The notes under the pieces were generated by a model. That model was not told where the DNA came from, did no database searches, and worked only from the letters and a program-made list of their open reading frames with translations. A stretch of 64,000 nucleotides of DNA from positions 86,427 through 150,426 of the IMG/VR virus record IMGVR_UViG_2758568729_000001; one strand, given 5' to 3'. How positions within the stretch are numbered: position 1 is the stretch's first letter; each line of letters opens with the position of its first letter. Positions 2,143 to 21,172 of this stretch are shown piece by piece. The stretch comes from a virus. Taxonomy: Duplodnaviria; Caudoviricetes. A program made the translations under genes and the position numbers.

Positions 2143-2565
2143 TCAGGTGGCGGGGATCAAACCGAGGTTCGCGAGCCGGGCGGCGTAGTCGTCGCCGCGC
2201 TGCTGCCGGGTTTTCACCGGCCGGTCCGCCGGCTGCTTGGCCGTGTCGGCGCCGACCTTGACCGGCTTCGGCCTGCTGCCCTTGCCGCCGCCACGCTGCC
2301 AGTTCGCGCCGGCGAGCAGGGTGCCGATGTGGGCGAGCAGGTGATCGCCCAAGTCGACGTCAGCGTTGTCGCCAGCGAGTTCCCGGTACAGGGCCGAGTC
2401 ACGGCCCAGTCGCCGGATGAGGACCATCAGCTCCCGCGCTGTGTACCGTTCCGACGGGCGACCGTGGAGCGCCTTTTTGAGCCGGATGTGGTGGAACTGG
2501 CTGAGGTCTGACTCAATGGCTCCGCCGTGCTCCCGGAGGAGTTGGTGGAGCCCGAGGATTCCCCC
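2143..2565 (-). CDS. Tail assembly chaperone, -1 frameshift extension (lambda gpT-like)
   Basis: The -1 frame is open from the slippery site and reads GGILGLHQLLREHGGAIESDLSQF... Confidence 0.85.
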   Translation of the reverse strand, partial: GGILGLHQLLREHGGAIESDLSQFHHIRLKKALHGRPSERYTARELMVLIRRLGRDSALYRELAGDNADVDLGDHLLAHIGTLLAGANWQRGGGKGSRPKPVKVGADTAKQPADRPVKTRQQRGDDYAARLANLGLIPAT

Positions 2566-2903
2566 AGGTCTTCTCCGGAGTGCTGCTGCCACTGTTCGAA
2601 CAGCAGACCGATGGCGGGGCTTGGTTGGTACTGGTCGTCCCACCGGGCGCGCTGCGCCGGGTCGAACCCGTAGGAGAAGATCTTCCGCAGGATGTCGAGG
2701 TCGACGTTGGCGACGTTGTCGGCACCGGTGATCGCGCTGAGTTCGTCCATCAGCCCGGCGGCCCGGTAGTCGATCTCGGAGAAGTGCGGCAGTTCCCACT
2801 TCACCCCGCCGAAGCGGAACTTGAACGGGCGCTTCCTGACGGCCTGGAACGCGGCGTCGAGGTCGTACACCTCGTCTTCGTCGTCGTACGGCTGCTCAGA
2901 CAT
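2427..2903 (-). CDS. Tail assembly chaperone (lambda gpG-like)
   Basis: Lies between the major tail and tape measure genes; LGESSGS followed by a low-complexity Ser/Thr tail after the slip site. Confidence 0.85.
   Translation of the reverse strand: MSEQPYDDEDEVYDLDAAFQAVRKRPFKFRFGGVKWELPHFSEIDYRAAGLMDELSAITGADNVANVDLDILRKIFSYGFDPAQRARWDDQYQPSPAIGLLFEQWQQHSGEDLGESSGSTNSSGSTAEPLSQTSASSTTSGSKRRSTVARRNGTQRGS
2559..2565 (-). other. Programmed -1 frameshift site GGGGGAA
   Basis: Minus strand reads CTG GGG GAA TCC; the two ORF frames differ by -1. Confidence 0.8.
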
Positions 2904-3662: not shown

Positions 3663-4223
3663 CTACGAGGAGAGCGCGTCGTCCACGTAGTACCGGTAGG
3701 CGACGACGCCGGACTGATCCACGTAGCAGGACAAGGTCCACTCGTAGACGGTGATCTCGGAGTTGGACCAGACGACGTCGCCGCGCTCGGTGACCTCGCC
3801 GAGGGGGACGACGATCCGCAGGCCACGGGTGCCGTCGATACCGTGGAGCACCCAGGACCGGATGTCCGTGACGGGGGCGACCTCTTCGACGGTGACCCCG
3901 GTCGCGGTCTGGGTGATCGTCGAGCCGGGGAACTGGACACCGATCGTGGTCAGGTTGGTCTCGGCGGCGGCGAAGGTGAAGGTCTTGACGAACTGGCCGG
4001 GGATCCGGCGGGCCAGGGTCGAGCCCTGCCAGATGAACAGGTCGGTGCGGTCCTGGGAGGTGGCTTCGGTGACGCCGTCCTCGCTGATGGCACCGACCTC
4101 GGCGAGGTCGCCGGACAGGGCGGCCACACCATCGGTCGGCAGGGTGGGGTTCGAGTCGCCGAACGCGGAGACGGCGACGAGCCCGTTGTTGTAGGCACGG
4201 ATGAGAGAGACGTCGACCGCCAT
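3663..4223 (-). CDS. Major tail (tube) protein
   Basis: EVGAISEDGVT...IWQG...GEVTERGDVVW, typical of actinophage tail tube proteins; AAGGAG RBS. Confidence 0.9.
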   Translation of the reverse strand: MAVDVSLIRAYNNGLVAVSAFGDSNPTLPTDGVAALSGDLAEVGAISEDGVTEATSQDRTDLFIWQGSTLARRIPGQFVKTFTFAAAETNLTTIGVQFPGSTITQTATGVTVEEVAPVTDIRSWVLHGIDGTRGLRIVVPLGEVTERGDVVWSNSEITVYEWTLSCYVDQSGVVAYRYYVDDALSS

Positions 4224-4305: not shown

Positions 4306-4641
4306 TCAGGGCAGCCGGTAGGCCGAGAGCTTGAGGTCCGCGTGGTCGACGTCGACCTGCATCTGAGCCCCGTACGTGGCCTGGTCGAACGGGCCGATGT
4401 ACCGGGACGCGGCGGCGGGGATCTCGTAGGTGCGCGGGGTGACGGCTTGGCCGTCCACGTCGCGGGCGAACCGAACGGTGACGGTTCGGGCGGTCGCGGC
4501 GCCGTTGCTGTTACGAACCAGCAAGATCACCTTGCCGTTGTTGGCGACCACGTGGTTGTCGGTGGCGTTGCCGTTGGTCTCGGCCGCCGGTGCGATACCG
4601 GCGCGGGTGACCTCGGTGACAGGAATGGAGACGCGGGGCAT
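4306..4641 (-). CDS. Small virion structural protein (putative)
   Basis: Beta-rich, 111 aa, between the tail terminator and major tail genes; GGAGG RBS. Confidence 0.65.
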   Translation of the reverse strand: MPRVSIPVTEVTRAGIAPAAETNGNATDNHVVANNGKVILLVRNSNGAATARTVTVRFARDVDGQAVTPRTYEIPAAASRYIGPFDQATYGAQMQVDVDHADLKLSAYRLP

Positions 4642-5445: not shown

Positions 5446-6180
5446 TCACAGATAGTCGTCGCCCCAGGGGACTGGCCTGGGGAAGGAGTAGATGGGCATC
5501 ACCGCGTGGTCCTGGCCGGGGGTGGTGCCGGTCTCATCCGCGAGCGCCCTCACCAGGTCGGCCCGGGTGCGCTCGGCGAGCTGCTGCAACTGGGTGGCCC
5601 GGTTCAGCGACACATCCGAGTCCGGCCAGCCGCGCTCCACGGCGGCGGCGGCGTACAGGGCTGCGGCCACGGAAGCGGTTTCGGCGAGCGCCGTGGTGAC
5701 GGTTGGGGCGACGGTGGTTACCCAGGCGACCCCGTCGGCGATGAGCCGGTCGACCTGCACCCCGGCGGGCCGGGTGGTCGAATCGAACGTGTGCGGGTAG
5801 ATGTCGGCCTTGGTCGTGGTGGTGGCGGTCGATCGCACGAGGGTGCGGGTCGGTACGTAGTTCGCCACCCTGCTCCGCCCGGGTGTCCAGGTGGGTCCAC
5901 CCGCTACTGGGGACGCGGAGACGTACACCTCTTGGGTCTCAACGCCGGCCCCCGTGCCGGTAACAGTCCACGTGAGGACCCACCGGCCGGGGTAGGTGTA
6001 CGTGACCGGGGTGGTGATCCACGTCTGGACACCTGCGTTCGTGCCCTCCACATACGGCACGAGAGTGCTCGTCGTGCCGCCCGGACCGGTCACCACCAAG
6101 GTCGCGGCCGTGGTGCCGTCGAACGGAGTCACCGTCAGGCGTGGGGTTTCGGCATCACCAACACCAACATCGGTGGCCAC
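5446..6180 (-). CDS. Head-to-tail adaptor with an N-terminal beta-rich domain
   Basis: C-terminal FDSTTRP...VDRLI...ALYAAAAVE...YSFP..W pattern of actinophage adaptors; synteny. Confidence 0.7.
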   Translation of the reverse strand: MATDVGVGDAETPRLTVTPFDGTTAATLVVTGPGGTTSTLVPYVEGTNAGVQTWITTPVTYTYPGRWVLTWTVTGTGAGVETQEVYVSASPVAGGPTWTPGRSRVANYVPTRTLVRSTATTTTKADIYPHTFDSTTRPAGVQVDRLIADGVAWVTTVAPTVTTALAETASVAAALYAAAAVERGWPDSDVSLNRATQLQQLAERTRADLVRALADETGTTPGQDHAVMPIYSFPRPVPWGDDYL

Positions 6181-6182
6181 AG

Positions 6183-7274
6183 TTACCCCCTGCTCGTGGT
6201 CGCGGTCAGGGACGGGCGGCTACTCGACGCGGTATGAACACCGGGCCGGTACTGCGGCAGGTGTTCCGGTACGGCGGCGGTGAGTACGCTTCCGGCGCTC
6301 AGGTCGGCGGCGGCGAAGTGGTTCAGCGCGGCCGTCGCCGTGAGGACGCTGCTCGCGGCGAGCGCGGCAGCCGCCCGCATCGTCGCCGTACCGGTGCCGC
6401 CGAGCGTGAAACTCGCGGACAGGTGGGCGGCGGCTTCCTGCTGCCGGGCACCAGCTGCGGTGAGGGTCGACGATCCGACCAGCGCGGCGGCGGCGTACCG
6501 GGTCACGACCGGGGCGGCGGTCGCCGTGGTTGCCGACACCAGACCGGCGGCGGCCGGGACCACCCGGACCGCTGTGGCGGTAAGCGTTGAGGACGCGGCG
6601 AGGGCGGCGGCGGCAAGGTTCAGCCCGGCCAGCGCCAAGGACACGCCCTGCCGCTGCACGGTGGCCGACGCGGTCGCTACTCGTGTGCCGGTCGGGCCGG
6701 CGGCGGTCAGTTCCTGAGTGGCGATCAGCATCGTCGTGTTGCGCTGGGTGGTGCTCGTTGAGCACACGTCCACGCGTTCCGTTGTCGCCGCGTCGGCGGT
6801 CCAGGTGGCGGTGGTGTTGATGACGTTGAGAATCACGCCGTGGATTGCGACCAGCAGCGTTGACGTCGGCACGGGGGCTACCGACGGGGCGGTGACTACT
6901 GTGCCGTTGCTGTTCGTCTCGTCAACAGCAGAGGCGACTACAGTGGCGCTGGTGACTACCACGCACCCAATTGCGACCCGGGACGACGAATCGATCGTGA
7001 AGCTGACGCTGGCACCAACATCCCCGCTGGCCAGGGTTTTTGTCCACACGAGGAAGTTGCCGGAACTGGCTGTGTCGACGGTTGGGGTGCCGGGTAGGGC
7101 GGCCCAGCCGGCGGCGGCCATGTCGTTGGTCGGCAGCCCGGCGGAGATGGCCATGGCGAGTACCGCGAGGTGGCCGGCCTGCGCCCCCGCTCCGGCGTCC
7201 GGGAGGGTGATCGCTGCGGTGGTGCCGCCGAGGCTGCTGGCGGAGGTGGCTGCGACGTAGGTGGGTGCGGCCAC
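6183..7274 (-). CDS. Ala/Thr-rich virion fibre-like protein with six 20-aa repeats
   Basis: N-terminal AGHL...GW beta module; AAAxLxxSSxLTA repeats. Confidence 0.65.
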   Translation of the reverse strand: MAAPTYVAATSASSLGGTTAAITLPDAGAGAQAGHLAVLAMAISAGLPTNDMAAAGWAALPGTPTVDTASSGNFLVWTKTLASGDVGASVSFTIDSSSRVAIGCVVVTSATVVASAVDETNSNGTVVTAPSVAPVPTSTLLVAIHGVILNVINTTATWTADAATTERVDVCSTSTTQRNTTMLIATQELTAAGPTGTRVATASATVQRQGVSLALAGLNLAAAALAASSTLTATAVRVVPAAAGLVSATTATAAPVVTRYAAAALVGSSTLTAAGARQQEAAAHLSASFTLGGTGTATMRAAAALAASSVLTATAALNHFAAADLSAGSVLTAAVPEHLPQYRPGVHTASSSRPSLTATTSRG

Positions 7275-7288
7275 GGCTCAACCCCCGC

Positions 7289-7672
7289 TCAGGACAGGGC
7301 GAGGGTGAACGACCCGGCGGGGAACGACAGGGAGTCCCCGGCGCCGACGGTCTTGCTGGCGGTCAAAGCCCCCCACCACAGGCGGCGGGGCGAACCAGCG
7401 GAGTCCCAGACTTCGACGCCGACGACCGTTGCCGCAGGCAGGCCGGCGAACGTCACGGCACCGGAGCTCGCGGACGCGCCGGCCGCAGCTGCGGTCATGG
7501 TGATGGTTTGCCGCGTGTACGACCCGCCGGTGACTTCGGTGCCGGCCGCAGTGGCGGACCCGTTCGCGGTGACCAACGCGAGCCGGATCGGGGTGGTGGG
7601 CGCCGTGTAGGAGGCGGTGCCCATGGTGGCATCGAGCAGGCGGTTGGCTTCGGTTGTGGTCAGGGCCGGCAC
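7289..7672 (-). CDS. Small fibre-associated virion protein
   Basis: GTG start after AAAGGGG; GTEVTGGSYTRQ...WDSAG...GALTASKTVGAGDSLSFPAG pattern. Confidence 0.7.
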   Translation of the reverse strand: MPALTTTEANRLLDATMGTASYTAPTTPIRLALVTANGSATAAGTEVTGGSYTRQTITMTAAAAGASASSGAVTFAGLPAATVVGVEVWDSAGSPRRLWWGALTASKTVGAGDSLSFPAGSFTLALS

Positions 7673-7743
7673 ATCGGCCCCCTTTCGCGGTGAGCCGATG
7701 TGGGTGGTGGTGAGGTGGGGCCGGCCTCGGTGGGCGTGGTCGG

Positions 7744-8763
7744 CTACAGCCAGTCGTCTTGTGCGCGTAGCCGGATCGGGTGCGGTTCCCACGCCCCGGC
7801 GACCCGGGCGCGGGCGGAGCCCATCGCGGCGACGCTGATGGTCACGAAGTCGATGCCGATCCCGGATCGGTCATCGGTGACCGTCAGGCTGAACGTCAGG
7901 GTGGCCCCGGTGGTGGTTGCCGGGGCGGTGAACGTGGCGTCCACGGTGCCCGCCCCGGTGAGAGTCACCGGCGGCCCGGACTGCTGTGCCCACAGGTAGG
8001 CGGTGACCGTGCCGTCAAGGTCCGTCGACCCGGACGCGTTCAGGTGGACCGTCGCCCCCGGAGGGACGGACCGGTCAGGGCCTGCATTCGCGATCGGCGG
8101 CGCGTTCGTCGAGGACAGGATGATCGACGCGCAGGCGGGGCCCACGGTCGACTCGGACAGGCCGTGTGGGGTTGCCGGTACCGGGGCGTTGGTGCCGAGG
8201 GCCTTCGTCGCGAGCGCCTGCACCGCGTTCTTGAGCGTCAACGTGGTCGACACCGTTTGCCCGGCCAGGGTCCACCCGACAGCAGGGGTCACCGTTGGCT
8301 GCGCCCCGGCCAGGTTGCAAGCCCCGCCGATGACCCCGAGGAGCACCGTTGTTGCCGCAGCCGGGGTGACCGCAGGGGTGTTCGGGGTGGCGGTCTGGGT
8401 GCCGGAGTACAGGGTGGTGATCTGCTCGACCACCACGGGTGCCCCACCGGTGTCGTACACGGCGGCCACGTTCATGGCCCACCGGGTGCTGGCACCCAAC
8501 CCGAACTCCAGGGCCGCCCCAGCGTCCCCGGCCTGGGCCCGCCGACGCGCACCACGCAGCGAACCGGTGGTGGTCGACGCCGGCACCATCTCCGCGAGCT
8601 CCGTCCACCCCGCCGGTGGAGCCAGGGTCGCGGCGGCGGCCAGAAGCTGGATGGTGGCGACGAGCAGGTCACCCGGTTGGGTACTGGCGGGGATGTTGCC
8701 GAGAGCCGTGGAGGTCGACCCGGCCGACGATGACGATTCGACGGCGCGCACCACAATGGTCAC
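7744..8763 (-). CDS. Virion surface protein with a C-terminal PKD/Ig-like domain
   Basis: NAPPIANAGPD...LNASGSTDLDG..TAYLWAQQSGP...FSLTVTDD. Confidence 0.8.
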   Translation of the reverse strand: MTIVVRAVESSSSAGSTSTALGNIPASTQPGDLLVATIQLLAAAATLAPPAGWTELAEMVPASTTTGSLRGARRRAQAGDAGAALEFGLGASTRWAMNVAAVYDTGGAPVVVEQITTLYSGTQTATPNTPAVTPAAATTVLLGVIGGACNLAGAQPTVTPAVGWTLAGQTVSTTLTLKNAVQALATKALGTNAPVPATPHGLSESTVGPACASIILSSTNAPPIANAGPDRSVPPGATVHLNASGSTDLDGTVTAYLWAQQSGPPVTLTGAGTVDATFTAPATTTGATLTFSLTVTDDRSGIGIDFVTISVAAMGSARARVAGAWEPHPIRLRAQDDWL

Positions 8764-11015
8764 GGGATGAACTCCTCAAAGTGCGAGGCGGTCCAATTCC
8801 GCACGGGCGTACCTTCGGTCACATAGTGGGAGTAGAACCACCGTCCGGGTGCTTTCCCTTGCCGGTGATACGTTTGCCCGCTGATGTGCCACACGTTGCT
8901 GTCGTCGAATATCTGGTTGAATCCGGGGGTGATTTCGTTGGCCCACGGGCCGGAGATGAACCTCAGCCCGAAACGGTTGCGCCTGTAGAACAGGTTGTAG
9001 GTGACGAAGGTGCCCCGAGAAACGGTCTGGGGACTCTCGACCCCGGCCCGGACGATCAGGTTGCAGCCGTCGCCGTAGTTGTCGTCGAAGGCGAACCAGC
9101 TACAGTCGCCGGTCATGTGGCCCACGATGGTGATGGCGTTCGCCACGTCGGCGAGCAACGGGCTTGGGGTGTCCTGGCCGCCTGTGTACATGTCGAACCG
9201 GTTGAACCGCACGGCCGCGTTGTCACCGGAGGTGATTTGGTGTGAGTCGCAGTGACCGCCTGGCGCCTTTTGTAGGCTGTGGGTCCAGCAGAACTCGATC
9301 AGCGTGTCCTTGCCGGTCTTGAACGCGTCATTGCCGCAGTGGTACACCTCGCAGTACCGGGCGGTGTACGACCCGTACGGGGGGATCGCGGCGGACACCG
9401 AAAGCCCGCACTCGATCTCGCAGTACGACATGTTGAAACCGGGGTAGGTGTCGCTTGTCGCGATGACGTACTTCCCGGACCCGACAATTTCCCGACCGGA
9501 GATCCGGCAGTACCGCATCGTCACATTCGGGGCGGAGATCTTGACCTGTCCGACCATGTCGATGTACTCGACCAGCGCCCCGGGCCGGGTGATTTCCAGC
9601 CCCAGTGTGCCGGTGATCGTGTCGAGTCCGATCGTGCCCGACACCAATCCTTTGGCGTCGATGAACGGCTGCCCCACGTGCGAGTAGTCGATCACCCGCA
9701 GGTACGTGTAGTCCCGGCCCTGAGCGTCCAAGACTGGCCGAACCCCGCAATACTCCGGGCCCATCTGGGCGCCGTTGGTGACACCCGGAGGCGGCTCGGT
9801 TGCCCCGTAGTAGCCCCTGCCGTTGTTCGCCCCACCGTTGCCGCCCCAACCATCGGGGGCGCCGACGATCGGGCCGATCGAGCCGATGACCCACTCGCCG
9901 GCGGGAACGGCCAGGACCTCGGCCGGATCCGACGCCAGCGACGCGTTCGCCGCAGTCAGGGTGATCGTGTAGTTGGTGCCGTTGATCAGGCCCTCGATCG
10001 TGTGGTTACGCGCTGACGGCGGCAGAGTCACCGGTGCCGCGTCGTCGGGCAGGATCGAAAGGTGGTAGCCGACGATCGGGGCACCACCGGAGTCAGCCGG
10101 CGCGTCCCACGTCAGCGCCAGTTCACCGGTCGCGGGGATCGCGGCCAGGTCCCGGGGCGGGGTTGGTGGGACTACTGTGGCGACGTCACCGGACAGGACA
10201 CGCCACTCCTGGGTGTACCGGGTCCGTACGGTGCTCGCCGCACCGGGCACGTCCACGGCCGGCCCAGCAATGTCCCAGGTGGTGACGACGCTGCCGGTGA
10301 CAACGGTGGTCGGGGCGGTATCCACATCCCATGTGGTCGCGGCGGTCTTGGTGACCTGTGTCGACACGGACCCGACCGGCAGGACAGCGGCGAGGAACGC
10401 GACGTAGGAGGAGAACACCAAGCTGACGGTCAGGTTGCCGGTGCTGCCGGTTGTCGCCTTCGCGGCGGTGGCGATACCGGAGGCGGAGTCCAAGCCCTCC
10501 ACGGTCAGGATCTCGACCTGCTCGGTCAGCGCGCCAGGGTCGGTGACCGCCCACGCGGACAGGCCCCGGTTGTCGATGACCCCGACCCCGGCGACGATCA
10601 GGGTGTCCGCGACGGAGGTGACGATCGCCGGGCAGCAGGAGTCGATCGGCGGGACCGTCGAGTTGATCTGCGATGACGTGCTGTCGAACGGGGAGCCGGT
10701 GGCGATGGCGCCGCGTACGACGAGCATCGCGGCAGTGGTAGAGCTGGTGCCGCCGGTCCATGTGTAGGTGGTCGGGTCGGCGCCGTTGACCCTTCGCCAC
10801 GCCAGGCACGCGTACCCCTGCACCACGGGTGCGTCACCGAACGTCAAACCAGCCTCGGCGGTTGCCCACCCGGCCGGTTGCATCAGCGGGGCGGTGCCGT
10901 GGGTCGACGCAACCACCAGCAGCAGGTCACCGGCCTGCGCCTCCACGGGGACGGTGATGGTGACGTCGGTCAAGCCGACCCCGGAGGCGGTGGCGACCAC
11001 GGTGGGTGCTGGCAT
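8760..11015 (-). CDS. Large virion surface protein: beta module + fibronectin type III + putative right-handed beta-helix
   Basis: FN3 signature LTWDAPADSGGAPIVGY...GLINGTNYTITLTAAN; C-terminal ISAPNVTMRYCRI / IEFCWTH / HCDSHQ repeats. Confidence 0.8.
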   Translation of the reverse strand: MPAPTVVATASGVGLTDVTITVPVEAQAGDLLLVVASTHGTAPLMQPAGWATAEAGLTFGDAPVVQGYACLAWRRVNGADPTTYTWTGGTSSTTAAMLVVRGAIATGSPFDSTSSQINSTVPPIDSCCPAIVTSVADTLIVAGVGVIDNRGLSAWAVTDPGALTEQVEILTVEGLDSASGIATAAKATTGSTGNLTVSLVFSSYVAFLAAVLPVGSVSTQVTKTAATTWDVDTAPTTVVTGSVVTTWDIAGPAVDVPGAASTVRTRYTQEWRVLSGDVATVVPPTPPRDLAAIPATGELALTWDAPADSGGAPIVGYHLSILPDDAAPVTLPPSARNHTIEGLINGTNYTITLTAANASLASDPAEVLAVPAGEWVIGSIGPIVGAPDGWGGNGGANNGRGYYGATEPPPGVTNGAQMGPEYCGVRPVLDAQGRDYTYLRVIDYSHVGQPFIDAKGLVSGTIGLDTITGTLGLEITRPGALVEYIDMVGQVKISAPNVTMRYCRISGREIVGSGKYVIATSDTYPGFNMSYCEIECGLSVSAAIPPYGSYTARYCEVYHCGNDAFKTGKDTLIEFCWTHSLQKAPGGHCDSHQITSGDNAAVRFNRFDMYTGGQDTPSPLLADVANAITIVGHMTGDCSWFAFDDNYGDGCNLIVRAGVESPQTVSRGTFVTYNLFYRRNRFGLRFISGPWANEITPGFNQIFDDSNVWHISGQTYHRQGKAPGRWFYSHYVTEGTPVRNWTASHFEEFIP

Positions 11016-11030
11016 GCCCGCCCTCCCCAG

Positions 11031-11567
11031 TCAGAGGGTGGTGCCGGTGACGGCGAGGGTGAGCCCGTCAGCGGTGACCGCAGCGGAGTTGGTGCAGGTG
11101 CGCCGGACCCACACGGCCCGGACACGGCCGGGAGCGATGTCGCCGATACTCAGCGCGGTTCCGGTGGAGGTCGGGACGCTGAACACCACCCCGGGTGGGG
11201 CGGTGGTGGCGTTCGCGATCCCCAACGCCTGCGGGGTGCCGGCCTGCCCGACCGGGGACACCGGGGTTGGGTCGACCCCGATGGCGCAGGTGGTGCCGCC
11301 GCCGACCTGGGCGGAGATGTACACCCCGGCAGCGTTGAGGGTCAGGGTGGCGTGGGTGTTGCGCACGAACACGCACGCGTAGTCGATGGTCGACGCCACG
11401 TTCTGGGCGGCGGTCACGTTCAAGAGCAGGGTGTTCGCCCCGGCGACCATTTGGGTGGTGGCCACGTACCGGCCGAGGCTGGCCCCGACGGTGCCGGCGG
11501 CCACGTACCCGGCCGAGGCCCCGGGTGCGCTGAGGTGGAACAGGATGTCGGCGGCGACGATGGCCAC
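11031..11567 (-). CDS. Putative virion structural protein
   Basis: DYACVFVRNTH...LSIGDIAPG..RAVWVRR, beta-rich; GGAGG RBS. Confidence 0.7.
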   Translation of the reverse strand: MAIVAADILFHLSAPGASAGYVAAGTVGASLGRYVATTQMVAGANTLLLNVTAAQNVASTIDYACVFVRNTHATLTLNAAGVYISAQVGGGTTCAIGVDPTPVSPVGQAGTPQALGIANATTAPPGVVFSVPTSTGTALSIGDIAPGRVRAVWVRRTCTNSAAVTADGLTLAVTGTTL

Positions 11568-11631
11568 GGGTGCGCCTCCCTACTCGCCGGTGGAAAGGGC
11601 ACGGGTTGGTGGCGCCGGGAACTGCGGCAGG

Positions 11632-12327
11632 TCACATCCCCGCAGGTGCGGGTAGCGGTGTCTCGTCAAGGAGCGCGCGCACCGCAGCCGGGCCGTGCTT
11701 GGCGGCGTACTGGTAACGCACCTGCAACGCCCGGCTTGGTGCGGATCCGACGTGCCGGTTCAGGCGCTCCTGCGGCGGGTGCCACAGGTGGTACAGGGGT
11801 GCGGTTCCACGCCAACTGGGCCCGGCCAGGGATGTCAGGGCGAGCGCCCACGACTCGTCCTCGCCGCCCCAGCCCTGGAATCGGGGGTCGAGCGGCACCT
11901 GCTCGTACACGATGCGCGGAAGGACGGTGATTCCGCCGCCGTCGAGGCCGCGGTACGGGTCCTGCGTCGTCGCACCGGCAACGGATGCGGGCTTGACTCC
12001 ACTGAAAACGGCGGTGGTGGCCAGCTCGGTCAACCGGTGCACGTTGCCGTGCGGTACCGCCCACGGGGCACCACGTTCGACCGCGTCCACGGCCAGGTCG
12101 ACGCCGTGGCAGATCACGTCCGCGTCGGCGATGACCAGCATGTCGCCGTCGGCCCGGGTGAGGGCGTAGCCGACCGCGTTGGCTTTGACCCAAGGGCCGC
12201 CGACGTTGGTGCCGGCAACCACCTGCCAGTCAGGGTGTGTGGCCGCCCACCACCGCCGAACCCACGCCCACGCCCGGTCCCGGTGCCCGCCATCGGGCCG
12301 CCACGGCACCAGAACGGTGACGGTCAC
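11632..12327 (-). CDS. Glycosyltransferase (GT-A fold, GT2/GT7-like)
   Basis: VLVPWR...DADV (DxD)...DPRFQGWGGED...LYHLWH; GTGA overlap with the upstream stop. Confidence 0.88.
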   Translation of the reverse strand: MTVTVLVPWRPDGGHRDRAWAWVRRWWAATHPDWQVVAGTNVGGPWVKANAVGYALTRADGDMLVIADADVICHGVDLAVDAVERGAPWAVPHGNVHRLTELATTAVFSGVKPASVAGATTQDPYRGLDGGGITVLPRIVYEQVPLDPRFQGWGGEDESWALALTSLAGPSWRGTAPLYHLWHPPQERLNRHVGSAPSRALQVRYQYAAKHGPAAVRALLDETPLPAPAGM

Positions 12328-13118
12328 TGCCGCCACCGCAGGTACGCGGCCGGGTCGTGCACCATGCCGGAGTCGGTGGGGGACAGGTACCAGAAGTGCT
12401 GCCGGAACACGTCCGCGAGAGCTTCGACGCCGTGCCGTTCGGCGATCTCCCCGTAGGCCCGCCAGTGCGCCCCCTGGTCGGCGGGGAGGTCGGTGCGCCG
12501 GTACGCCTCCGCCCCGTTGACCGCCTTCCGCACGAACTGGTCGGCCGACCGGTAGGGGAAATGCCGCACCTGAAGCACCGGCGCCGCCCGGCCACCGGAC
12601 GGGAGAGTCACCCCATGGTTGCCTTGGTGGATGACCGCCCCGGGTTCCCACCGGAACGCGACCTTCGGCAGCCGAGTCGCCTCACGTTGTCGCCACACCA
12701 TCGTGCGGAACGGGTCGGAACCGGCCGGGTCCGGGTCCACCGATGTGCAGAAGTGGTTGGTCAGCGCCGCTTGGGCAACCGGGCGGTCCAGTTCGGGAAG
12801 CACCAGGCGGATCCGGTCCGCTTCGGCGGTCCACAACTCGTCGGCGTCGAACGGCACAATCCAGGTCTCCCCGGGTCGCAGCGCGGCGGCTTGGTCAGCC
12901 AGAGCCGTCATCTTCCGGGACTGGTAGTACGCGGGCTCGGGGTCGTCGACCACGGTCAGCGGCAGCTCCCGGGCCAACCGGTCGAGGATGTCCCTGGTGC
13001 CGTCGGTGGAGCCGTTGTCGGCGACGATCAGGTGGTCGACCTCGTCGGCCATGTGCCGCAGGGTGCCCTCAACAACATCCGCTTCGTCGCGAACCATTGA
13101 GATCCCGAATACGGCCAC
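12324..13118 (-). CDS. Glycosyltransferase family 2
   Basis: MVRDEAD...ADNGSTDGT...PFDADELW...HFPYRS. Confidence 0.9.
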   Translation of the reverse strand: MAVFGISMVRDEADVVEGTLRHMADEVDHLIVADNGSTDGTRDILDRLARELPLTVVDDPEPAYYQSRKMTALADQAAALRPGETWIVPFDADELWTAEADRIRLVLPELDRPVAQAALTNHFCTSVDPDPAGSDPFRTMVWRQREATRLPKVAFRWEPGAVIHQGNHGVTLPSGGRAAPVLQVRHFPYRSADQFVRKAVNGAEAYRRTDLPADQGAHWRAYGEIAERHGVEALADVFRQHFWYLSPTDSGMVHDPAAYLRWRQ

Positions 13119-13119
13119 G

Positions 13120-13755
13120 TCAGTGCCTCCTCGCGTCGTAGAGCACGGGGTGGACCACCGGCCACGGCGGAGACAGGGGTGTGTCGAACAGTTCCGGGAA
13201 CTGCTCGGGTGTGCGGGTCGCTACCAGCAGGTTCTGGCGGTACCAGTTCTCCACCCGGTCGTCGTTCCAGATCGACCAGCGGAGCGCACCGGACACCGAC
13301 CACCCGTGGGCCTTGAACCGGGTTACCCAGTAGTTGGGCCACTGCTCGTTGACGTGCCCCACACCGCCTTGGCCGGGGATGGCCGCCGAGAACAAGAGCG
13401 TCGGGGCCAGGTTGCACAGGTCGTCCACGAGGCTGTCGGCCCGGGACGGGGGAAGGTGCTCGGCTACCTCAAGGCACACCGCAAGGTCGAAACGGCCGTG
13501 CAGGTGCGCCGGGAGCGGCAGTGCCAGGTCGTGGGGGATGAACCGGTCGCCGAGCGGTGACCCGGTCACGTAGGCGCCGTCGACACCGATGACCTCGCAC
13601 CCGTGGCCGGCGAACGTGTCCGCCCACCAGCCCTCACCGCAGCCGACGTCGATCACCGTGGCGGGTTTGACGATGTCGACGACGACGGGCACCACGGCGG
13701 CGGCGGATGCCCGGGTGCCGGCCCGGATGGTGTCGTAGAACGAGCCGTTGTACAT
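13120..13755 (-). CDS. Class I SAM-dependent methyltransferase (glycan O-methyltransferase-like)
   Basis: VIDVGCGEG, VDG, CLEVAEHL and SAAIPGQGGVGHVNEQ motifs. Confidence 0.9.
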   Translation of the reverse strand: MYNGSFYDTIRAGTRASAAAVVPVVVDIVKPATVIDVGCGEGWWADTFAGHGCEVIGVDGAYVTGSPLGDRFIPHDLALPLPAHLHGRFDLAVCLEVAEHLPPSRADSLVDDLCNLAPTLLFSAAIPGQGGVGHVNEQWPNYWVTRFKAHGWSVSGALRWSIWNDDRVENWYRQNLLVATRTPEQFPELFDTPLSPPWPVVHPVLYDARRH

Positions 13756-14444
13756 CAGTACCCGACTCCGATCCGCTGATGACCGACGTGTTCCACCCAA
13801 GGTGAGTCGCTGCGCGCGCCCCAGTAGCCGAACCGGACTTGGTCGCCCGGCACGGTGCCGAGCCCGGAGGAAAGGAGCCGGTTGGTGAAGTGGCCTTCGG
13901 ACTGTTCCCGGTCCGGCCAGCCCACCTGAAGCAGCTCCGTTCGGTACAGGCAGGGGTTGGTGGTGAAGAACTGGCGGTGCTCCAACCACTGGTGCCCGTG
14001 ATCGTCGTGGCAGGCGGTGTACGCCTCCGGGTGCTGTTCGACAACGCCCCCTGCGGCCCGCTCGGCTGTGTTCCACGACTGCCGGCGGAGCGCCATCTGC
14101 ACCAGGTGCGGGCGTTCGGTAAGCACTTCGGCCATCGCCGCCAGGTCGACCGGCCGGTGAAAGGTGAAGTCCTGCTCGATGTGGAACAGCCAGTCGGCGG
14201 TGCTGTGGGCGGCGAGGTGCGACCACGCTGCCCGGATCGCCCCACCGAACCCTTGCCGTGGGCCGCCGTTGATGTGCCGGAACTCCGGCCAGACGGCGGC
14301 GAGTCGGGCCCGGTAGGCGGCGTTGCCGGTGTCGTCGTACATCCACCGCTCGCTGATCGGCCCTTCGAGCGCGTCAAGCGAAGAGATGCACTGGGCGAGG
14401 TAGTCATCGCGGCCGTCGGTGATGACGAGGAGGGCGATGCTCAA
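13755..14444 (-). CDS. Glycosyltransferase (GT-A fold)
   Basis: LLVITDGRDDYL...YDDTG...FHIEQDF...VEHVG; TTG start overlaps the upstream stop. Confidence 0.8.
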   Translation of the reverse strand: MSIALLVITDGRDDYLAQCISSLDALEGPISERWMYDDTGNAAYRARLAAVWPEFRHINGGPRQGFGGAIRAAWSHLAAHSTADWLFHIEQDFTFHRPVDLAAMAEVLTERPHLVQMALRRQSWNTAERAAGGVVEQHPEAYTACHDDHGHQWLEHRQFFTTNPCLYRTELLQVGWPDREQSEGHFTNRLLSSGLGTVPGDQVRFGYWGARSDSPWVEHVGHQRIGVGY

Positions 14445-15040
14445 CCAAGCACCGCCTTCACGATCTGGTGGTGAACGCGGTTCTTCTCGACCATCGACGG
14501 GGCCCGGTTGCGGCTGCCCCGCCGGACGTGCGCCCGGTACACCGCTCGGGGGATTGCTTCCACCGTCGCGCCGGCGGCCCAGCACCGCAGCCACAGCGAC
14601 CAGTCCTCGTACAGGGGTTCGTCCCACCAGCCGCCGACGGCGCGGACCAGGCCGGTCCGGACGGCGGTACCGACGACCAGCCAATTCCCGTGGGGCAGGC
14701 ATCCGGCGTGGCAGATGTGGAGGTGGCCGGCGACCCTCGGCAAGCCCGGTGCGCCGACCCGGCGGCCGTGGACGTACCGGACGGCGGGGGCCCGCAGATC
14801 GGCGGTGCCGGCGGCCATGGCGTCGAGGTAGCCCGGCTCCAACTCGTCGTCGGCGTCGAGGTGCACCACCCATTCGGTGGCCACCTGGGCGAGCGCACCG
14901 TTACGGGCGCTGTGAAGGGAGTCGGCGTGGACGTGGACGACGGGAACACCGAACGCCTGCGCGGACGGTATCGCCCGTGTTTCGGCGAGCTGCCGCCACG
15001 ACTCGTTCCCGTAGGTGCCGACGGCGATCGTCACGTCCAC
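14441..15040 (-). CDS. Glycosyltransferase family 2
   Basis: ARNGAL...HLDADD...VGGW...YEDWSLWLR. Confidence 0.9.
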   Translation of the reverse strand: MDVTIAVGTYGNESWRQLAETRAIPSAQAFGVPVVHVHADSLHSARNGALAQVATEWVVHLDADDELEPGYLDAMAAGTADLRAPAVRYVHGRRVGAPGLPRVAGHLHICHAGCLPHGNWLVVGTAVRTGLVRAVGGWWDEPLYEDWSLWLRCWAAGATVEAIPRAVYRAHVRRGSRNRAPSMVEKNRVHHQIVKAVLG

Positions 15041-15690
15041 AGGCGCCGCCGCCGGTTGAAGATGCTGCGCCCGGCCGCCATCCGGTGTCCCTGCTGGGCG
15101 TAGAGCGGATCCATCGGTGCTTTCCCGACGGTGGGGTGGAGGTGTTCGACCACGGCGTCACGCGCGAACGCCCACGCCTTGCGGTGCTTGGCGGTTGCCA
15201 CGGCCTCGTCGTCGCACCACTCGTGCGGGTAGCCCTCGTGCAGGAACTTGCCGGGCTCGTCGATGGTGCCGTACTCGGTCACGTACTCGCGGGTGACGAG
15301 CATGTGGGTTGCGTGATCGCCCCGAAGGACCCGCTTGTTCGCGAGGTCGTTGGTGCCGACCACGCCGATGCCTGCTGCCAGCCGTTTGTGTGCGGCGTTG
15401 AGCCACCCGGGGTGGAACCGGAGGTCGTCGGCGGCGGTGAAGAGGAGTGGGGCGGTGGTCGCCCGAATCCCAAAATTGATCTTCCGCTGGTAGTCGCCGC
15501 ACCCCCGCCAAGGGACCGTCACCCGTCTCCGGCCGGCGGCGTCGATCTCGGCGTGAACCGCAACGTCGTCAGGAGACACCACGAACAGCACCTCGGCGCC
15601 CGGTGTCGTAGCGGCGATCGACTCCAGGAGTGGGGCAACCCGGTGGGGGCGGCCGAGCATCGGCACCAAAATGGCCACCTCAGCCCTCAT
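15031..15690 (-). CDS. Glycosyltransferase family 2
   Basis: ILVPMLGR...KINFGI...TAADDL...WCDDE...VEHLHP. Confidence 0.85.
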   Translation of the reverse strand: MRAEVAILVPMLGRPHRVAPLLESIAATTPGAEVLFVVSPDDVAVHAEIDAAGRRRVTVPWRGCGDYQRKINFGIRATTAPLLFTAADDLRFHPGWLNAAHKRLAAGIGVVGTNDLANKRVLRGDHATHMLVTREYVTEYGTIDEPGKFLHEGYPHEWCDDEAVATAKHRKAWAFARDAVVEHLHPTVGKAPMDPLYAQQGHRMAAGRSIFNRRRRLWT

Positions 15691-15706: not shown

Positions 15707-16189
15707 TTACTGCTTCAGCAGGTCCCGCAGCTCGTCCTTCGACGACGCTGCGGCTGCCTCGTACGCGTAGCCGCGTGCCACGGCCGCTTCGATCCACACG
15801 GCGTGAGCGGCACGACCGTCCGGGAGGGCACCGTCGTCGGGCAGCTTCGCCCGCGCGGCGGCCCGGTCCGGGTCGTCGAACGGAACCGCCTGTTGGGCGG
15901 CGTCACCGGTCCCGTTCGGCTCGGCCACGGGGGCGCTGTCCGGGGCGTCGGCGGGAACCTCGTCCGGCTTGGCCTCGTCCGGCTTGGCCTCGGCCGGCGG
16001 GGCTGCCACCGGCGGGGCCGACCGGCCCACGCGTTCGATCATGCCCCGCCGCAGCAGGTGCCGGATCTCCGCCGGTTTCGCCTCGGCCGGCACGAACGCG
16101 TCCCGGTACACGTAGCTCAGCGCCGGACCGTGTGCCGTGATCGCTGTCACCACCACCACGGCGGCCGTCACCCGGTACTGGGCCGACAT
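15707..16189 (-). CDS. Hypothetical protein downstream of the capsid gene
   Basis: Coupled to the capsid stop; AKPDE repeats; short helical C-terminus. Confidence 0.7.
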   Translation of the reverse strand: MSAQYRVTAAVVVVTAITAHGPALSYVYRDAFVPAEAKPAEIRHLLRRGMIERVGRSAPPVAAPPAEAKPDEAKPDEVPADAPDSAPVAEPNGTGDAAQQAVPFDDPDRAAARAKLPDDGALPDGRAAHAVWIEAAVARGYAYEAAAASSKDELRDLLKQ

Positions 16190-17124
16190 CAGCTACCCTC
16201 CGTGTCCGTGATCCAGATGCCGGCGCCGGGCTCCTGCACGATCGGCACCGTCAGCCGGCGGGCCTGGATGTCGTGGGAGTCCGTCTTGTCGATCCGGATG
16301 ACCTTGACCTGCACGCCCCGGTCGGTCTGGGCGTAACCGGGGTCGACCTCGGTCTCGTCGGCCATCGAGCCGAGCTGCCGGGAGTCGAACAACAGGACGT
16401 CGTCCGTCGGCAGGTTCTGCTCCGTGGTCGTCAGGATCCTGTACGGGCCGACCTGGTCCAGCTCGCCCGTGTAGATCGGGTTGGTGGTCGTCTCCCGGCG
16501 GCGCAACTGGGCGATGATGTTGTCGGTCATCATCAGCGCCGCCTTGGTGTCGGACATCAGGAGCGTGTCCGGCACGTAGCCCTGGTTCAGGCCCTTGATC
16601 TTCGCTGCGGCCAGGGCCACGTCCCGCCACATGCGGGCGGCGTCGTCGTCGTCCCACGGGGCGATCGCCTCGTGCACGGCGGTTACCTGCGAGGCGACGA
16701 CCGACAGGGTGATCTCGTCGACCATGCTGATGACCGTGTTGACGGTTTTCAGCAGGGCGCGGTCGACGACCTCACCGCCGTACACGGAGCGCTTGATCTG
16801 CTCGTCGGTGATCGGCACCGCCTGGCCCCACTTGCGGACGGCGGCGAGGATCGCGGTTCCGACCCCGGGGGTGGCGCGCGGGTACTCGGCGCCGGGGGCG
16901 ATCGAGCGGGCGTCGCGGGCGTTCCGGAGCGGTTCCGACTGCTCGGCGAGGACCGCCCCGCCCTGGGAGCGGAGACGCCCGGTGAGGATCAGGTCGGACA
17001 CGAACCGCAGCTCGGCGAGGGTCCGCAGGCGGCGGCTGATCTGACGCGGCGACTGGAGCAGCCGGTGGGTGGTGATGAGGTTGTCCACCATCGTTGGCGG
17101 TTGTGCCGGATAGGTACCGGGCAT
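16189..17124 (-). CDS. Major capsid protein
   Basis: IAPGAEYP...KWG...ITDE...GYVPDTLLM...VPIVQEP.A; synteny; AAAGGA RBS. Confidence 0.9.
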   Translation of the reverse strand: MPGTYPAQPPTMVDNLITTHRLLQSPRQISRRLRTLAELRFVSDLILTGRLRSQGGAVLAEQSEPLRNARDARSIAPGAEYPRATPGVGTAILAAVRKWGQAVPITDEQIKRSVYGGEVVDRALLKTVNTVISMVDEITLSVVASQVTAVHEAIAPWDDDDAARMWRDVALAAAKIKGLNQGYVPDTLLMSDTKAALMMTDNIIAQLRRRETTTNPIYTGELDQVGPYRILTTTEQNLPTDDVLLFDSRQLGSMADETEVDPGYAQTDRGVQVKVIRIDKTDSHDIQARRLTVPIVQEPGAGIWITDTEGS

Positions 17125-17254: not shown

Positions 17255-17611
17255 TCAGATGTCCATGTAGGTGACGAACCCGCCGGAGGCGGTGGTGAGC
17301 GCCACCCCGAGGTCGTTGACGTGACCGGAACTGGTGGCGACCGCACCGCCCGCAGCAGGGACGACCCGGGCGCCGGCGGTGATGGCACCGGAAGCGGCGA
17401 CCTCGTGGACGAGTCCGCGACCGAAGATCTTCACCTCGGCGCCCTGGGGCGCGTCGTAGGCGAAGTGTCCGATTCCGGCGGCGGTCGTCGCGGTGGACGG
17501 ACCGGCCGTCCACGATCCGGTGACGATGGCGACCTGGCCGCCGGTGACGGCGGCGGACGTGACCATGGTGAACTCGTCGCCTGGCTTGAACAGTGGCTCG
17601 TACTCGGGCAT
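17255..17611 (-). CDS. Capsid decoration/cement protein (DUF2190-like)
   Basis: Small Gly/Ala-rich protein: ASGAITAGARVV...G.A...GVALT. Confidence 0.8.
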   Translation of the reverse strand: MPEYEPLFKPGDEFTMVTSAAVTGGQVAIVTGSWTAGPSTATTAAGIGHFAYDAPQGAEVKIFGRGLVHEVAASGAITAGARVVPAAGGAVATSSGHVNDLGVALTTASGGFVTYMDI

Positions 17612-17612
17612 G

Positions 17613-19745
17613 TCAGGCGTCCTTTCCGGCGAACGCGTCAGGGGGGAAGATCCGGGCCAACGCCTCGTCGGACAGGTCGTCCCCGCTCAGCAGTGCTTCG
17701 GGGTCGCCGACCTCGCCGGCCGGCTGGACCGGGACGGCGGTGCCGGGGGCGATGGAGGCGAGGATGTCGGTGATGACGTCCGACGCCTGGTCGTACCGGG
17801 TGGACCAGTTGTCCCGGTCGGCGGGCCGGATCTTGCCGGCCTTCACCGCACCGTCGAGGACGGACGCCTTGAGGGTGGCCGCCTCACGGGCCTTGATGGT
17901 GGCCAACTCCTCGGACACCCGCTTCAACTCGGCGGCGTACTCCGCCGGGATCGAGGCGGCGACCGGGGCCGGCTCCGCGACCGGCTCCGGGGTCGGGTTG
18001 GGGGTAGGGGCGGGGGCGGCCAAGCGCGCGTCGAGCGCGGCCAGGACAGCGGTCTCGTCGGCGTCGTCGGCGAGGCCGAGCCGCGAGCGGAACTCGCTCA
18101 GGTCGGACACAGGGTCCTCCAATGTGGGGTTGGTGATGGGCTCCGGCTCGGCGGCCGGGAGATCGGGGTCCGGGTCGGGTTCCGGCTCAGGCGCGGGCTC
18201 CGGCTCCGGGGAAGGGGCGGGGGCGGGATCGGCCGGGGCCGGCTCCGGGACAGGGGTGGGTTCAGGGGCCGGTTCCGGCTCCACCGGCGGGGGCGGGTCC
18301 GACGCCTTCGGCTCCTTGCCGGGGCGGGACTCCGACCGGGACGCGAACACCAGCGACTGCGTGCCGGCCTTCGCCGCCACCGGCTGCTCGTTGGTCGCGT
18401 CCACGTACCGGGTCAGGACCTCAACGGCGTCACCGAAGGTGAAGGTGTCCTCGCCGGTGACCTCCACCGGCACCCGGTACCGCTTCCCGCTGTTGTCGTC
18501 CACGACGATCATTTGCAGCGGGTCCAGGTGGAACTCGACGATCCAGTACGACCACGGGGCGTCGTCGTAATACTGGCGGCGGACGTCCTCCACGGTGACG
18601 CCGGCCGCGACCTGCGTTGGGTGCGGGTTGGGCATGGTGCTCCTTCCGCCGGCAGCGGCTTCGGTGGTTGTTGCGGTGGTGAGGGGGATGTCGGTGTGGT
18701 CGCCGCCGAACGCCACCCGGATGCGGTCGAACGCGACGGGGCCCGTCCGGTCGACCAGGTCGGGCAGGGTGTCGAGGTCACCGCTGTAGGTGAGGGTGAT
18801 GTGCGGGACCCATGGGGCCCGTTGCTCCGGCACCCCGTCCGACGTGACGGCGCCGATCGCGGCGTCGTGGGCCTCTTGAAGGCCCGGCCCGCCGACGAGT
18901 AGGACCAGGCAGGGTTCGGGGCCTCCGGGGTTGAACACCGACGGTGCGAACCCGTCAACGGTGAACGCTGGGAGGTTGGCGGCGATCTGCGTGGCCGCGG
19001 CGATGACCTCGGCCCGCGCGGTGTCGCCCCACGCGTCGCCCTTGCCCAAGAACATGAGGGTGGTGTGCAGCTCCCCAACGGGTTCGCCGTCGTCAACGGC
19101 GAGCCGGGCCGCATCATCTGCGGTGGGGAGCAGGGCGATCATTGCCCCGGTGTGCGCCGCCGCTGCGGCCTTCACCGGCTCGGCCCGGACCGTGGCCCGG
19201 ATCCGCACCCCGGACTGCGGTGCGGACGCGGCAACCCCGTACAGGGCGGCGATGTCCTGAAGGGATTGGAGGGTGCCGACACCCGGTGGGGTCACACCGA
19301 GGAGCGCCACAGCGGTCAGCACGAACGGGTGGGTGTGCCCGATCTGGCAGACAAAGTCGTAGACGCCCTCAATGGACCGGTCCGGGTACGCGGAGGCGAT
19401 CACCGAACCTTCATCGCCTGCTGCACCTGCCAGCCAGGCGGGCATCCCGGCGAAGTCGCCGACGAGGGTGAGCCCGTCGTCGGTGACCGTGAGGTTGTCG
19501 ACGTACCCGAGGAGCGGGTCCCCGTCGGCGGTGGGGTCGGTGAACCGCGTGTCGCTGTGGCCGATCTTGATGCCGGGGCGGCGGACCGCAGGGCACGCCA
19601 GGGCGGCGACCGCCGCATGCAGGTCCTGCGTCGTGGCGGTCCACACCCCGGTCGAGACCGGCCACGTGCCCGCGTGAACGAGTTCCACCCGGGGGATACG
19701 CCGAAGCGCAGGCGGGGCCGGCACGCTGACATCAGCCATGGTCAC
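17613..19745 (-). CDS. Capsid maturation protease-scaffold polyprotein with an internal 2H-phosphoesterase domain
   Basis: Mu-like protease motifs (IKIGH, YPDRSIEG, LTAVALLGVTPPGV); two HxT motifs (LHTTL, PHITL); PE linker; scaffold-like C-terminus AVKAGKIRPA. Confidence 0.85.
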   Translation of the reverse strand: MTMADVSVPAPPALRRIPRVELVHAGTWPVSTGVWTATTQDLHAAVAALACPAVRRPGIKIGHSDTRFTDPTADGDPLLGYVDNLTVTDDGLTLVGDFAGMPAWLAGAAGDEGSVIASAYPDRSIEGVYDFVCQIGHTHPFVLTAVALLGVTPPGVGTLQSLQDIAALYGVAASAPQSGVRIRATVRAEPVKAAAAAHTGAMIALLPTADDAARLAVDDGEPVGELHTTLMFLGKGDAWGDTARAEVIAAATQIAANLPAFTVDGFAPSVFNPGGPEPCLVLLVGGPGLQEAHDAAIGAVTSDGVPEQRAPWVPHITLTYSGDLDTLPDLVDRTGPVAFDRIRVAFGGDHTDIPLTTATTTEAAAGGRSTMPNPHPTQVAAGVTVEDVRRQYYDDAPWSYWIVEFHLDPLQMIVVDDNSGKRYRVPVEVTGEDTFTFGDAVEVLTRYVDATNEQPVAAKAGTQSLVFASRSESRPGKEPKASDPPPPVEPEPAPEPTPVPEPAPADPAPAPSPEPEPAPEPEPDPDPDLPAAEPEPITNPTLEDPVSDLSEFRSRLGLADDADETAVLAALDARLAAPAPTPNPTPEPVAEPAPVAASIPAEYAAELKRVSEELATIKAREAATLKASVLDGAVKAGKIRPADRDNWSTRYDQASDVITDILASIAPGTAVPVQPAGEVGDPEALLSGDDLSDEALARIFPPDAFAGKDA

Positions 19746-21156: not shown

Positions 21157-21172
21157 GCCCACCCCCCGACCT

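Follow-up and report, generated by a model that had tools for sequence, protein, structure and literature searches.

We analysed a window of 64,000 nucleotides (nt) from the IMG/VR virus record IMGVR_UViG_2758568729_000001 (positions 86,427 to 150,426), which corresponds to G000:C1:8243375-8307374 of a complete 8.74 Mb genome and belongs to a very large prophage of a Micromonospora-type actinomycete. The locus under study is a block at positions 6,183 to 15,690 of the window, in which six predicted glycan-enzyme genes are followed by five appendage-like genes. Because the GC content of the window is ~69%, genes were picked by third-position GC and frame plots. Every gene from position 1 to ~23000 lies on the minus strand, and the order from high to low coordinates is TerL, portal, MuF/protease, a scaffold-like gene, the major capsid protein (MCP) gene, the small gene g160, the block, the adaptor-position gene p244, a gene for a protein of 109 amino acids (aa), the tail terminator, and the major tail protein (MTP) gene (Table 1). 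A preliminary description of this DNA had placed a ~9.5 kb co-oriented block in the head module, between the capsid and adaptor genes. The GC frame plot and the open reading frames (ORFs) bear out the co-oriented block, and its position holds except that g160 intervenes between MCP and GT1.

The six enzyme genes are arranged in the order GT1-GT2-GT3-methyltransferase-GT4-GT5 (GT, glycosyltransferase), and both the order and the tight packing expected from the preliminary description were confirmed by Pfam and PHROG matches together with start-codon refinement. GT2, the methyltransferase, and GT4 passed the Pfam cut-offs, and GT1 and GT5 were sub-threshold in Pfam and significant in PHROGs. GT3, which gave no Pfam match, is supported by its PHROG match and by an identity of 45% with a galactosyltransferase annotated in phage GX15bay; its family is present in 211 phage records. 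GT5 is 63-67% identical to its homologues in the related loci L023 and L007, and no paralogue of GT4 was found in the host genome. After the start codons were refined, adjacent genes of the six abut or overlap by 1-10 nt, the ATG of the methyltransferase gene overlapping the stop codon of GT3. None of the six enzymes contains a membrane-span-like segment (maximum 19-residue hydropathy 0.68-1.76), and the Pfam scan detected no Gtr family match among them. Thus, as had been stated, the six enzymes include no GtrA flippase, GtrB, or multi-span GT of the kind that makes up a Gtr-type serotype-conversion cassette. Between positions 4500 and 17700, a consensus scan found no sigma-70-like promoter, and this region held no copy of the prophage early-promoter box and a single weak terminator-like site; shuffled sequence gave more such sites. 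Because the genes abut or overlap, without internal promoter-like signals and with one weak terminator-like site, the block appears to form a single late operon and would be expressed late.

The stretch from g160 to the adaptor was mapped in relatives with the same capsid family, taken from the genomes of the taxonomic family and from IMG/VR. In Gordonia phage Dmitri, whose MCP is 44% identical, the capsid gene is directly followed by a small gene and the adaptor gene, without the block, which indicates that the 9.5 kb block is a real insertion. Among ~37 loci with both edges visible, ~20 have no insert and ~17 carry one. Appendage genes without enzymes fill ~11-13 of the insert-bearing slots. 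L004 (Polymorphospora) encodes F178, F751, and F339 at 52-57% identity, L013/L025/L028 (Micromonospora carbonacea and proviruses) encode F178 with other partners, and other large slot proteins occur without enzymes in L005/L032, L006, L009/L096, L029, L049, L052, and L073.

Six phages bear enzymes (the window, L007, L023, L024, L033, and L037), which fall into three non-homologous sets. The L007 slot encodes a GT2-FkbM methyltransferase fusion, a second fusion of a nucleotidyltransferase with a GT5-like domain, and a lectin-like protein of 414 aa. Those of L037 and L024 encode a UDP-glucose-dehydrogenase-like protein, a Gly_transf_sug+LicD protein, an FkbM methyltransferase, and a sulfotransferase-like protein, together with fibres of 1135 and 893 aa. 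The L023 slot holds enzymes only and has no room for a fibre gene, and in L033 a homologue of GT1 (65% identical) is followed by one of GT2 (62%) at the same position, where the contig ends. A GT5-family hidden Markov model found no member in L037, L024, or L033, and tblastn detected no window-enzyme homologue common to all enzyme-bearing phages. The interval from g160 to the adaptor is a hypervariable accessory-gene slot, which took up at least three non-homologous glycan-enzyme sets. Within L024, a 379-aa ORF inside the enzyme part (L024:7071-8210) has an N-terminus that resembles an IS200/IS605-type TnpB by eye; this candidate TnpB, if confirmed, would fit the slot as a recombination and insertion hotspot.

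Enzymes and appendages are separable modules, because the fibres occur without enzymes (L004 and L013/L025/L028), the enzymes occur without a fibre gene (L023), and GT2-GT3-GT4 are found in the unrelated phage GX15bay. The proposal of a single travelling cassette of enzymes and fibre substrates was therefore not upheld, the fibres also lacking a C-terminal motif that tracks the enzymes, and the co-occurrence of GT and fibre genes across relatives was not consistent.

The C-terminus of the capsid protein co-varies with the enzymes. A T-x-G-S end was found in 6/6 enzyme-bearing relatives (TDTEGS in the window, TNTAGS in L007, TFTEGS in L023, TGTSGS in L024, TATAGS in L033, and TGTVGS in L037) versus 0/77 enzyme-less relatives. 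No C-terminal extension of the capsid protein was seen in comparison with the GT-less relatives; the tails differ in sequence, not in length. The MTP of the enzyme-bearing phages ends in -ALSS (window), -SLASGS (three cases), or -SLSGS, and its enzyme-less homologues end in -ALALDEG (L004) and -DDDLAL (L005/L032). The L004 MTP is 67% identical to that of the window, which lies inside the 63-76% range of the enzyme-bearing ones. A GS or SS end is present in 3/53 coding-type minus-strand ORFs of the window, two of which are the MCP and the MTP, and in none of the five fibre-like proteins. The third, an ORF at 2427-2903 (minus strand) in the tail-assembly-chaperone position just downstream of the MTP gene, ends in -RGS. 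In an MCP tree from which the eight C-terminal residues were left out, all six enzyme-bearing rows belong to one 20-row group, interleaved with 14 enzyme-less rows, and the best tree needs four state changes.

Similar ends are present in two mycobacteriophages with known virion-glycosylation enzymes. [quoted passage not shown] The Che8 MCP (gp6) ends in -KTGS and its major tail protein (gp11) in -SDGS, and the Corndog MCP ends in -LVGS and gp49 (presumed tail tube) in -KGDS, comparable to the -TEGS and -ALSS ends of the window MCP and MTP. By analogy with these reports, the -GS-like tails of the window's capsid protein and tail-tube protein may act as acceptors. The MCPs themselves differ in size (273 aa in Che8, 410 aa in Corndog, and 311 aa in the window), and BLAST found no match between the window and Corndog MCPs.

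The enzyme sets are also comparable. Five GT-A-type proteins and one S-adenosylmethionine (SAM)-dependent methyltransferase, all without membrane spans, are encoded in the window, and Corndog (cluster O) has the O-methyltransferase gp35 and the tandem soluble GTs gp36-38 in a head block beside the capsid gene. GT5 is homologous to Corndog gp37 (phmmer 3.6e-12) and Che8 gp109 (8.7e-7), with an hhalign probability of 92%. However, Corndog has three GTs upstream of the capsid gene, whereas the window has five downstream, and the methyltransferase and four GTs of the window are not detectably homologous to the Corndog enzymes. The window also differs in belonging to a very large prophage with a Micromonospora-type actinomycete host and in its adjacent appendage genes. 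Che8 (cluster F1) likewise encodes soluble GTs (gp108-110), but their genes lie at the right genome end, distant from the structural genes, and Che8 has no methyltransferase. The metagenomic phage GX15bay (MK557849) contains a GT-GalT-GT2 trio in the order of GT2-GT3-GT4 (39%, 45%, and 44% identical) within a cassette of six GTs and a methyltransferase. This cassette is located upstream of the terminase gene, not after the capsid gene, and has no F178- or Ntd-type neighbours.

The five genes downstream of the enzymes had been described as encoding Ala/Thr/Ser-rich fibre-like proteins. This composition applies to four of them (38-49% Ala+Thr+Ser), whereas F751 contains 28%, and the enzymes and other virion proteins contain 19-25%; moreover, the five have different architectures and are not five similar fibres. 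F751, F339, and F363 share an N-terminal domain (Ntd) of ~190 aa and are thus three paralogues. A search of 1.8 billion proteins with the F339 Ntd returned no more than 4 representatives below 1e-10, and establishing its paralogy with F751 and F363 needed profile comparison. The F339 Ntd family aligned colinearly with F363 (hhalign 94.8%, E 5e-8) and with the F751 family (87%, E 4e-6), and the F751-F363 Ntd pair alone was not significant. In the ESM Atlas, the Ntd fold also occurs joined to PKD, RCC1, laminin-G (LamG), and GDPD modules, mostly in phages and Actinomycetota. F363 had no Pfam, PHROG, or PDB sequence match, and sequence searches of F178, F363, and F167 against the PDB gave nothing useful.

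The C-terminal ~315 residues of F751 were modelled as a right-handed parallel beta-helix, with the predicted local distance difference test (pLDDT) score mostly 84-96 in the helix region. In VIA comparisons, the model matched the Det7 tailspike 6f7k (Z 17.8, 233 residues aligned, root-mean-square deviation 3.4), phi29 gp12 3gq7 (Z 17.4), 5w6p (Z 16.7), and PL6 lyases (Z 17.7), with lyases (PL6), polygalacturonases, and tailspikes at Z 16-17.7. The model therefore resembles the phi29 gp12 neck appendages and the Det7 gp208, CBA120 TSP2, and HK620 tailspikes, but these share no sequence similarity with F751, whose gene sits in a siphophage-type module, between those for capsid and adaptor. Three host genes encode proteins of ~460-500 aa that are ~32% identical to the F751 beta-helix (G000:C1:2833258-2834055, 3630718-3631359, and 3031900-3032520). 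The one paralogue examined has a hydrophobic N-terminal segment, judged by eye, and a weak pectate-lyase match; the host might use the F751 beta-helix fold on its own surface glycans.

The AlphaFold2 model of F178 (pLDDT 92) is a confident beta-sandwich, for which fold searches (Foldseek PDB, BFVD, and VIA wide) returned generic beta-sandwich matches only, with Z up to 7.2, and one unnamed viral protein. The F178 family has 33 members, none of them named, and F178 often precedes Ntd-type proteins. Its homologues in Angustibacter, Paenarthrobacter, and Nocardioides prophages follow the genes for tape measure and minor tail proteins, and at least one of them directly precedes an Ntd-type protein. 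The nearest homologues of F178 and F751 (81-82% identical) are on short Logan contigs. F167, whose start codon was chosen together with its ribosome-binding site, matches PF23140 over the whole profile (84.1 bits, cut-off 27; profile positions 2-127 of 128). PMC13730344 describes gp80 of the podophage GP4, and likewise the related proteins in A1002 and VP1, as fibre monomers; in A1002, the docking site of the fibre is the tail nozzle. Unlike GP4, the window phage has siphovirus-type tail genes, and F167 is encoded in the head-proximal slot.

The five downstream genes are predicted appendages that bind or cut host-surface glycans, three of them on a shared attachment domain. They may sit on the head, as the preliminary description proposed, or elsewhere on the virion; F178 homologues lie in tail modules of other actinophages, and Gp80 is named for a podophage tail fibre. 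The tail-tip module of the prophage, upstream of the window (L105, G000:C1:8225375-8244574), is minimal and contains no large receptor-binding protein. It encodes a tape-measure protein of 1168 aa, a 314-aa protein, a Sipho_Gp37 protein of 385 aa, a 311-aa protein, an amidase lysin, and a holin-like protein. Because this module is minimal, the slot proteins may supply much of the adsorption function.

On balance, and with moderate confidence, we predict from the sequence that the six enzymes constitute a Che8/Corndog-type cassette for virion glycosylation within a late operon. In the cytoplasm, during particle assembly, the soluble GT-A enzymes would assemble a short oligosaccharide, which the SAM methyltransferase would O-methylate. 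The product would sit on the exposed C-terminal Ser/Thr tail of the MCP (...T-D-T-E-G-S), with the C-terminal tail of the tail-tube protein (...A-L-S-S) as the proposed second acceptor. The downstream genes would represent a separate, independently mobile appendage module in the same slot. Of the earlier suggestion that the enzymes build a multi-sugar, methylated glycan on the capsid or the fibres, the glycan and the capsid fit the apparently late, soluble glycan-building set, the homology of GT5, and the -GS end of the capsid protein; the fibres as substrates do not. In L023, the acceptor cannot be a slot fibre, because this phage has enzymes and no fibre gene.

Several observations weigh against this interpretation. 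The capsid proteins of the enzyme-less L035 and L051 end in -ITGS, and many enzyme-less capsid proteins keep Thr/Ser near the end (-ITGTGSLG). The L035 and L051 contigs are IMG/VR fragments with no enzymes in the slot, and enzymes elsewhere are possible. In the MCP tree, the strongly supported branches force only one change and contain only one independent pair. Hence, the motif-enzyme association is perfect in the sample and statistically modest within this lineage of related phages. The approximately unbiased (AU) test, which disfavours the six as a single clade and so speaks for the association, gave a marginal p-value (p 0.035, delta log-likelihood 35.6). Five of the six enzymes have no detectable relation to the Che8 or Corndog enzymes, and the best hhalign match to Che8 gp110 and Corndog gp38, obtained with single-sequence profiles only, is GT2 at a probability of 9.6% (E 0.003). 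GT2-GT3-GT4 are also found in GX15bay, a phage whose likely capsid and tail proteins lack a GS end. Furthermore, the closest homologue of GT5 in an isolated phage is gp73 of Streptomyces phage Satis (52% identical), which is encoded among replication genes. The weight of the association comes mainly from its recurrence in the Che8 and Corndog lineages and its persistence across the three enzyme sets.

The enzymes could instead glycosylate the adjacent Ala/Thr/Ser-rich appendages, alone or besides the capsid, which would yield mucin-like coated fibres and make the block one functional cassette. The enzyme and fibre genes are direct neighbours in one operon, four of the five proteins have the high Ala+Thr+Ser content given above, F363 carries Ser/Thr-rich repeats, and the enzymes of L007, L037, and L024 are also directly upstream of a large structural-looking protein. 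Nevertheless, we judge fibre glycosylation quite improbable, given the slots with appendages only, including L004 and L013/L025/L028, the L023 enzymes without a fibre gene, the GT2-GT3-GT4 trio without these fibres in GX15bay, and fibre C-termini devoid of a motif tracking the enzymes. Modification of phage DNA as hypermodified bases to evade restriction is highly improbable. The position of Satis gp73 in a replication module would be in line with such a role, but PF00303 (ThyA family), for which controls scored in 10/14 genomes, had no match in the complete 8.74 Mb genome. Without a ThyA-family gene as the source of hydroxymethyl-pyrimidines, the hydroxymethyl-pyrimidine route to DNA glycosylation is unlikely. 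In addition, the cassette is in the head operon, not with nucleotide-metabolism genes, and GT5 has relatives among the virion-glycosylating enzymes of Corndog and Che8 as well.

Prophage-encoded TarP and Gtr enzymes are GTs acting on surface glycans that phages recognise, and the window enzymes might in the same way modify a host envelope glycopolymer on its lipid-linked precursor in the cytoplasm. This would alter the receptor of the neighbouring tailspike-like proteins and lead to superinfection exclusion, or spare the progeny from binding debris. In Gram-positive bacteria, soluble GT-A enzymes such as the prophage TarP of S. aureus add sugars to wall glycopolymers in the cytoplasm. As such enzymes suffice for wall teichoic acid, the missing membrane spans do not argue against host conversion, and the preliminary description's argument from a missing flippase and GtrA/B is weak. 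The neighbouring genes encode glycan-binding or -cutting modules (the beta-helix resembling tailspikes, fn3, and PKD), and the enzyme sets of the relatives hold IspD/MobA-like nucleotidyltransferase, LicD, UDP-glucose-dehydrogenase-like, and sulfotransferase-like proteins, a repertoire typical of wall-polymer pathways. However, tarP and gtr genes have their own promoters, are expressed in the lysogen, and number one to three, and Gtr proteins are membrane proteins, whereas the window has six soluble enzymes inside a presumptive late structural operon, without promoter-like or terminator-like signals of their own, unlike typical lysogenic-conversion morons. Host conversion would also leave the co-variation of the capsid and tail-tube C-termini with the enzymes unexplained, and GT4 has no host paralogue. 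We regard host conversion as plausible but unlikely.

If the six enzymes do glycosylate the virion, a more tentative extension, possible but short of probable, is that the C-terminal tail is kept in Che8, Corndog, and the window clade while three non-homologous enzyme sets swap in one slot. The slot would then be a 'virion glycan serotype' locus beside swappable appendages that bind host glycans.

The genes at the edges of the slot vary as well. The g160 homologue comes after the capsid gene in most relatives. A second, longer slot gene (345-358 aa) is present in L005 (L005:3493-4530), L006 (L006:3440-4516), and L032. The N-terminal part of the longer slot gene in L005/L031/L032 matches g160 at 33% identity (tblastn), which suggests that g160 is an anchor module able to carry extensions. 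At the downstream edge, the adaptor-position gene of many relatives matches just the C-terminal ~140-150 residues of p244, so that the first ~95 residues appear to constitute an extra N-terminal part. This part does not track the slot cargo: L035 has a long adaptor without cargo, and L029 and L096 have cargo with a short adaptor. Farther upstream, the 710-aa MuF/protease protein contains an internal 2H-phosphoesterase domain (LigT / 2'-5' RNA ligase-like) at residues ~185-357, an unusual fusion for a head-assembly gene.

Table 1. Features of the head and proximal tail region of the window (positions within the window).
Feature	Position	Strand	Supporting match
TerL	21173-22789	minus	
Mu-like portal	19732-21201	minus	
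MuF/protease fusion, 710 aa	17613-19745	minus	head-maturation-protease/MuF-like PHROG matches; weak Pfam Mu-like_Pro
Scaffold-like gene	17255-17611	minus	
MCP, 311 aa, ends ...ITDTEGS	16189-17124	minus	phrog_1650 2e-68; Pfam Phage_capsid_4
g160, small conserved 160-aa gene, upstream edge of slot	15707-16189	minus	phrog_2322 4.5e-9
GT1, GT-A (GT2-like) glycosyltransferase, 219 aa	15031-15690	minus	Glyco_tranf_2_3 E 3e-5 (below Pfam cut-off); phrog_14945 glycosyltransferase 1e-9
GT2, GT2-family glycosyltransferase, 199 aa, DAD at residue 62	14441-15040	minus	Pfam Glyco_trans_2_3 9e-10
GT3, galactosyltransferase-like, 229 aa from TTG at 14444	13755-14444	minus	phrog_3047 galactosyl transferase 5e-7
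SAM-dependent methyltransferase, 211 aa	13120-13755	minus	Pfam Methyltransf_23 2.6e-12
GT4, GT2-family glycosyltransferase, 264 aa	12324-13118	minus	Pfam Glyco_tranf_2_4 2.6e-13
GT5, galactosyltransferase-like, 231 aa	11632-12327	minus	phrog_1721 4e-11
F178, beta-sandwich protein	11031-11567	minus	phrog_13135 1e-20
F751, shared Ntd, fn3, right-handed beta-helix; predicted tailspike- or depolymerase-like	8760-11015	minus	fn3 1.7e-10
F339, shared Ntd and PKD/Ig domain	7744-8763	minus	K319L-like_PKD 1.4e-15
F167, Gp80-type small fibre unit, 127 aa from GTG at 7672	7289-7672	minus	Pfam PF23140 Gp80 1.3e-23; phrog_240
F363, shared Ntd and ~six Ala/Ser/Thr-rich ~20-aa repeats (AAAxLxxSSxLTA)	6183-7274	minus	hhalign to F339 Ntd
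p244, adaptor-position protein, downstream edge of slot	5446-6180	minus	phrog_17896
MTP (tail tube), 186 aa, ends ...DDALSS; proposed second acceptor	3663-4223	minus	

Glycosylated virions have been demonstrated in only a few mycobacteriophages, in which glycosylation lowers antibody recognition, and the recognition of virions by antibodies matters for phage therapy. The locus described here would extend the idea of virion glycosylation to a distant actinomycete prophage, in which the enzyme set is larger and mostly non-homologous. Its capsid-adaptor slot also holds tailspike-like and lectin-like appendage genes in a phage with a minimal tail-tip module. If the association between the C-terminal tails and the enzymes holds true, virion glycosylation could be predictable from sequence across actinophages.

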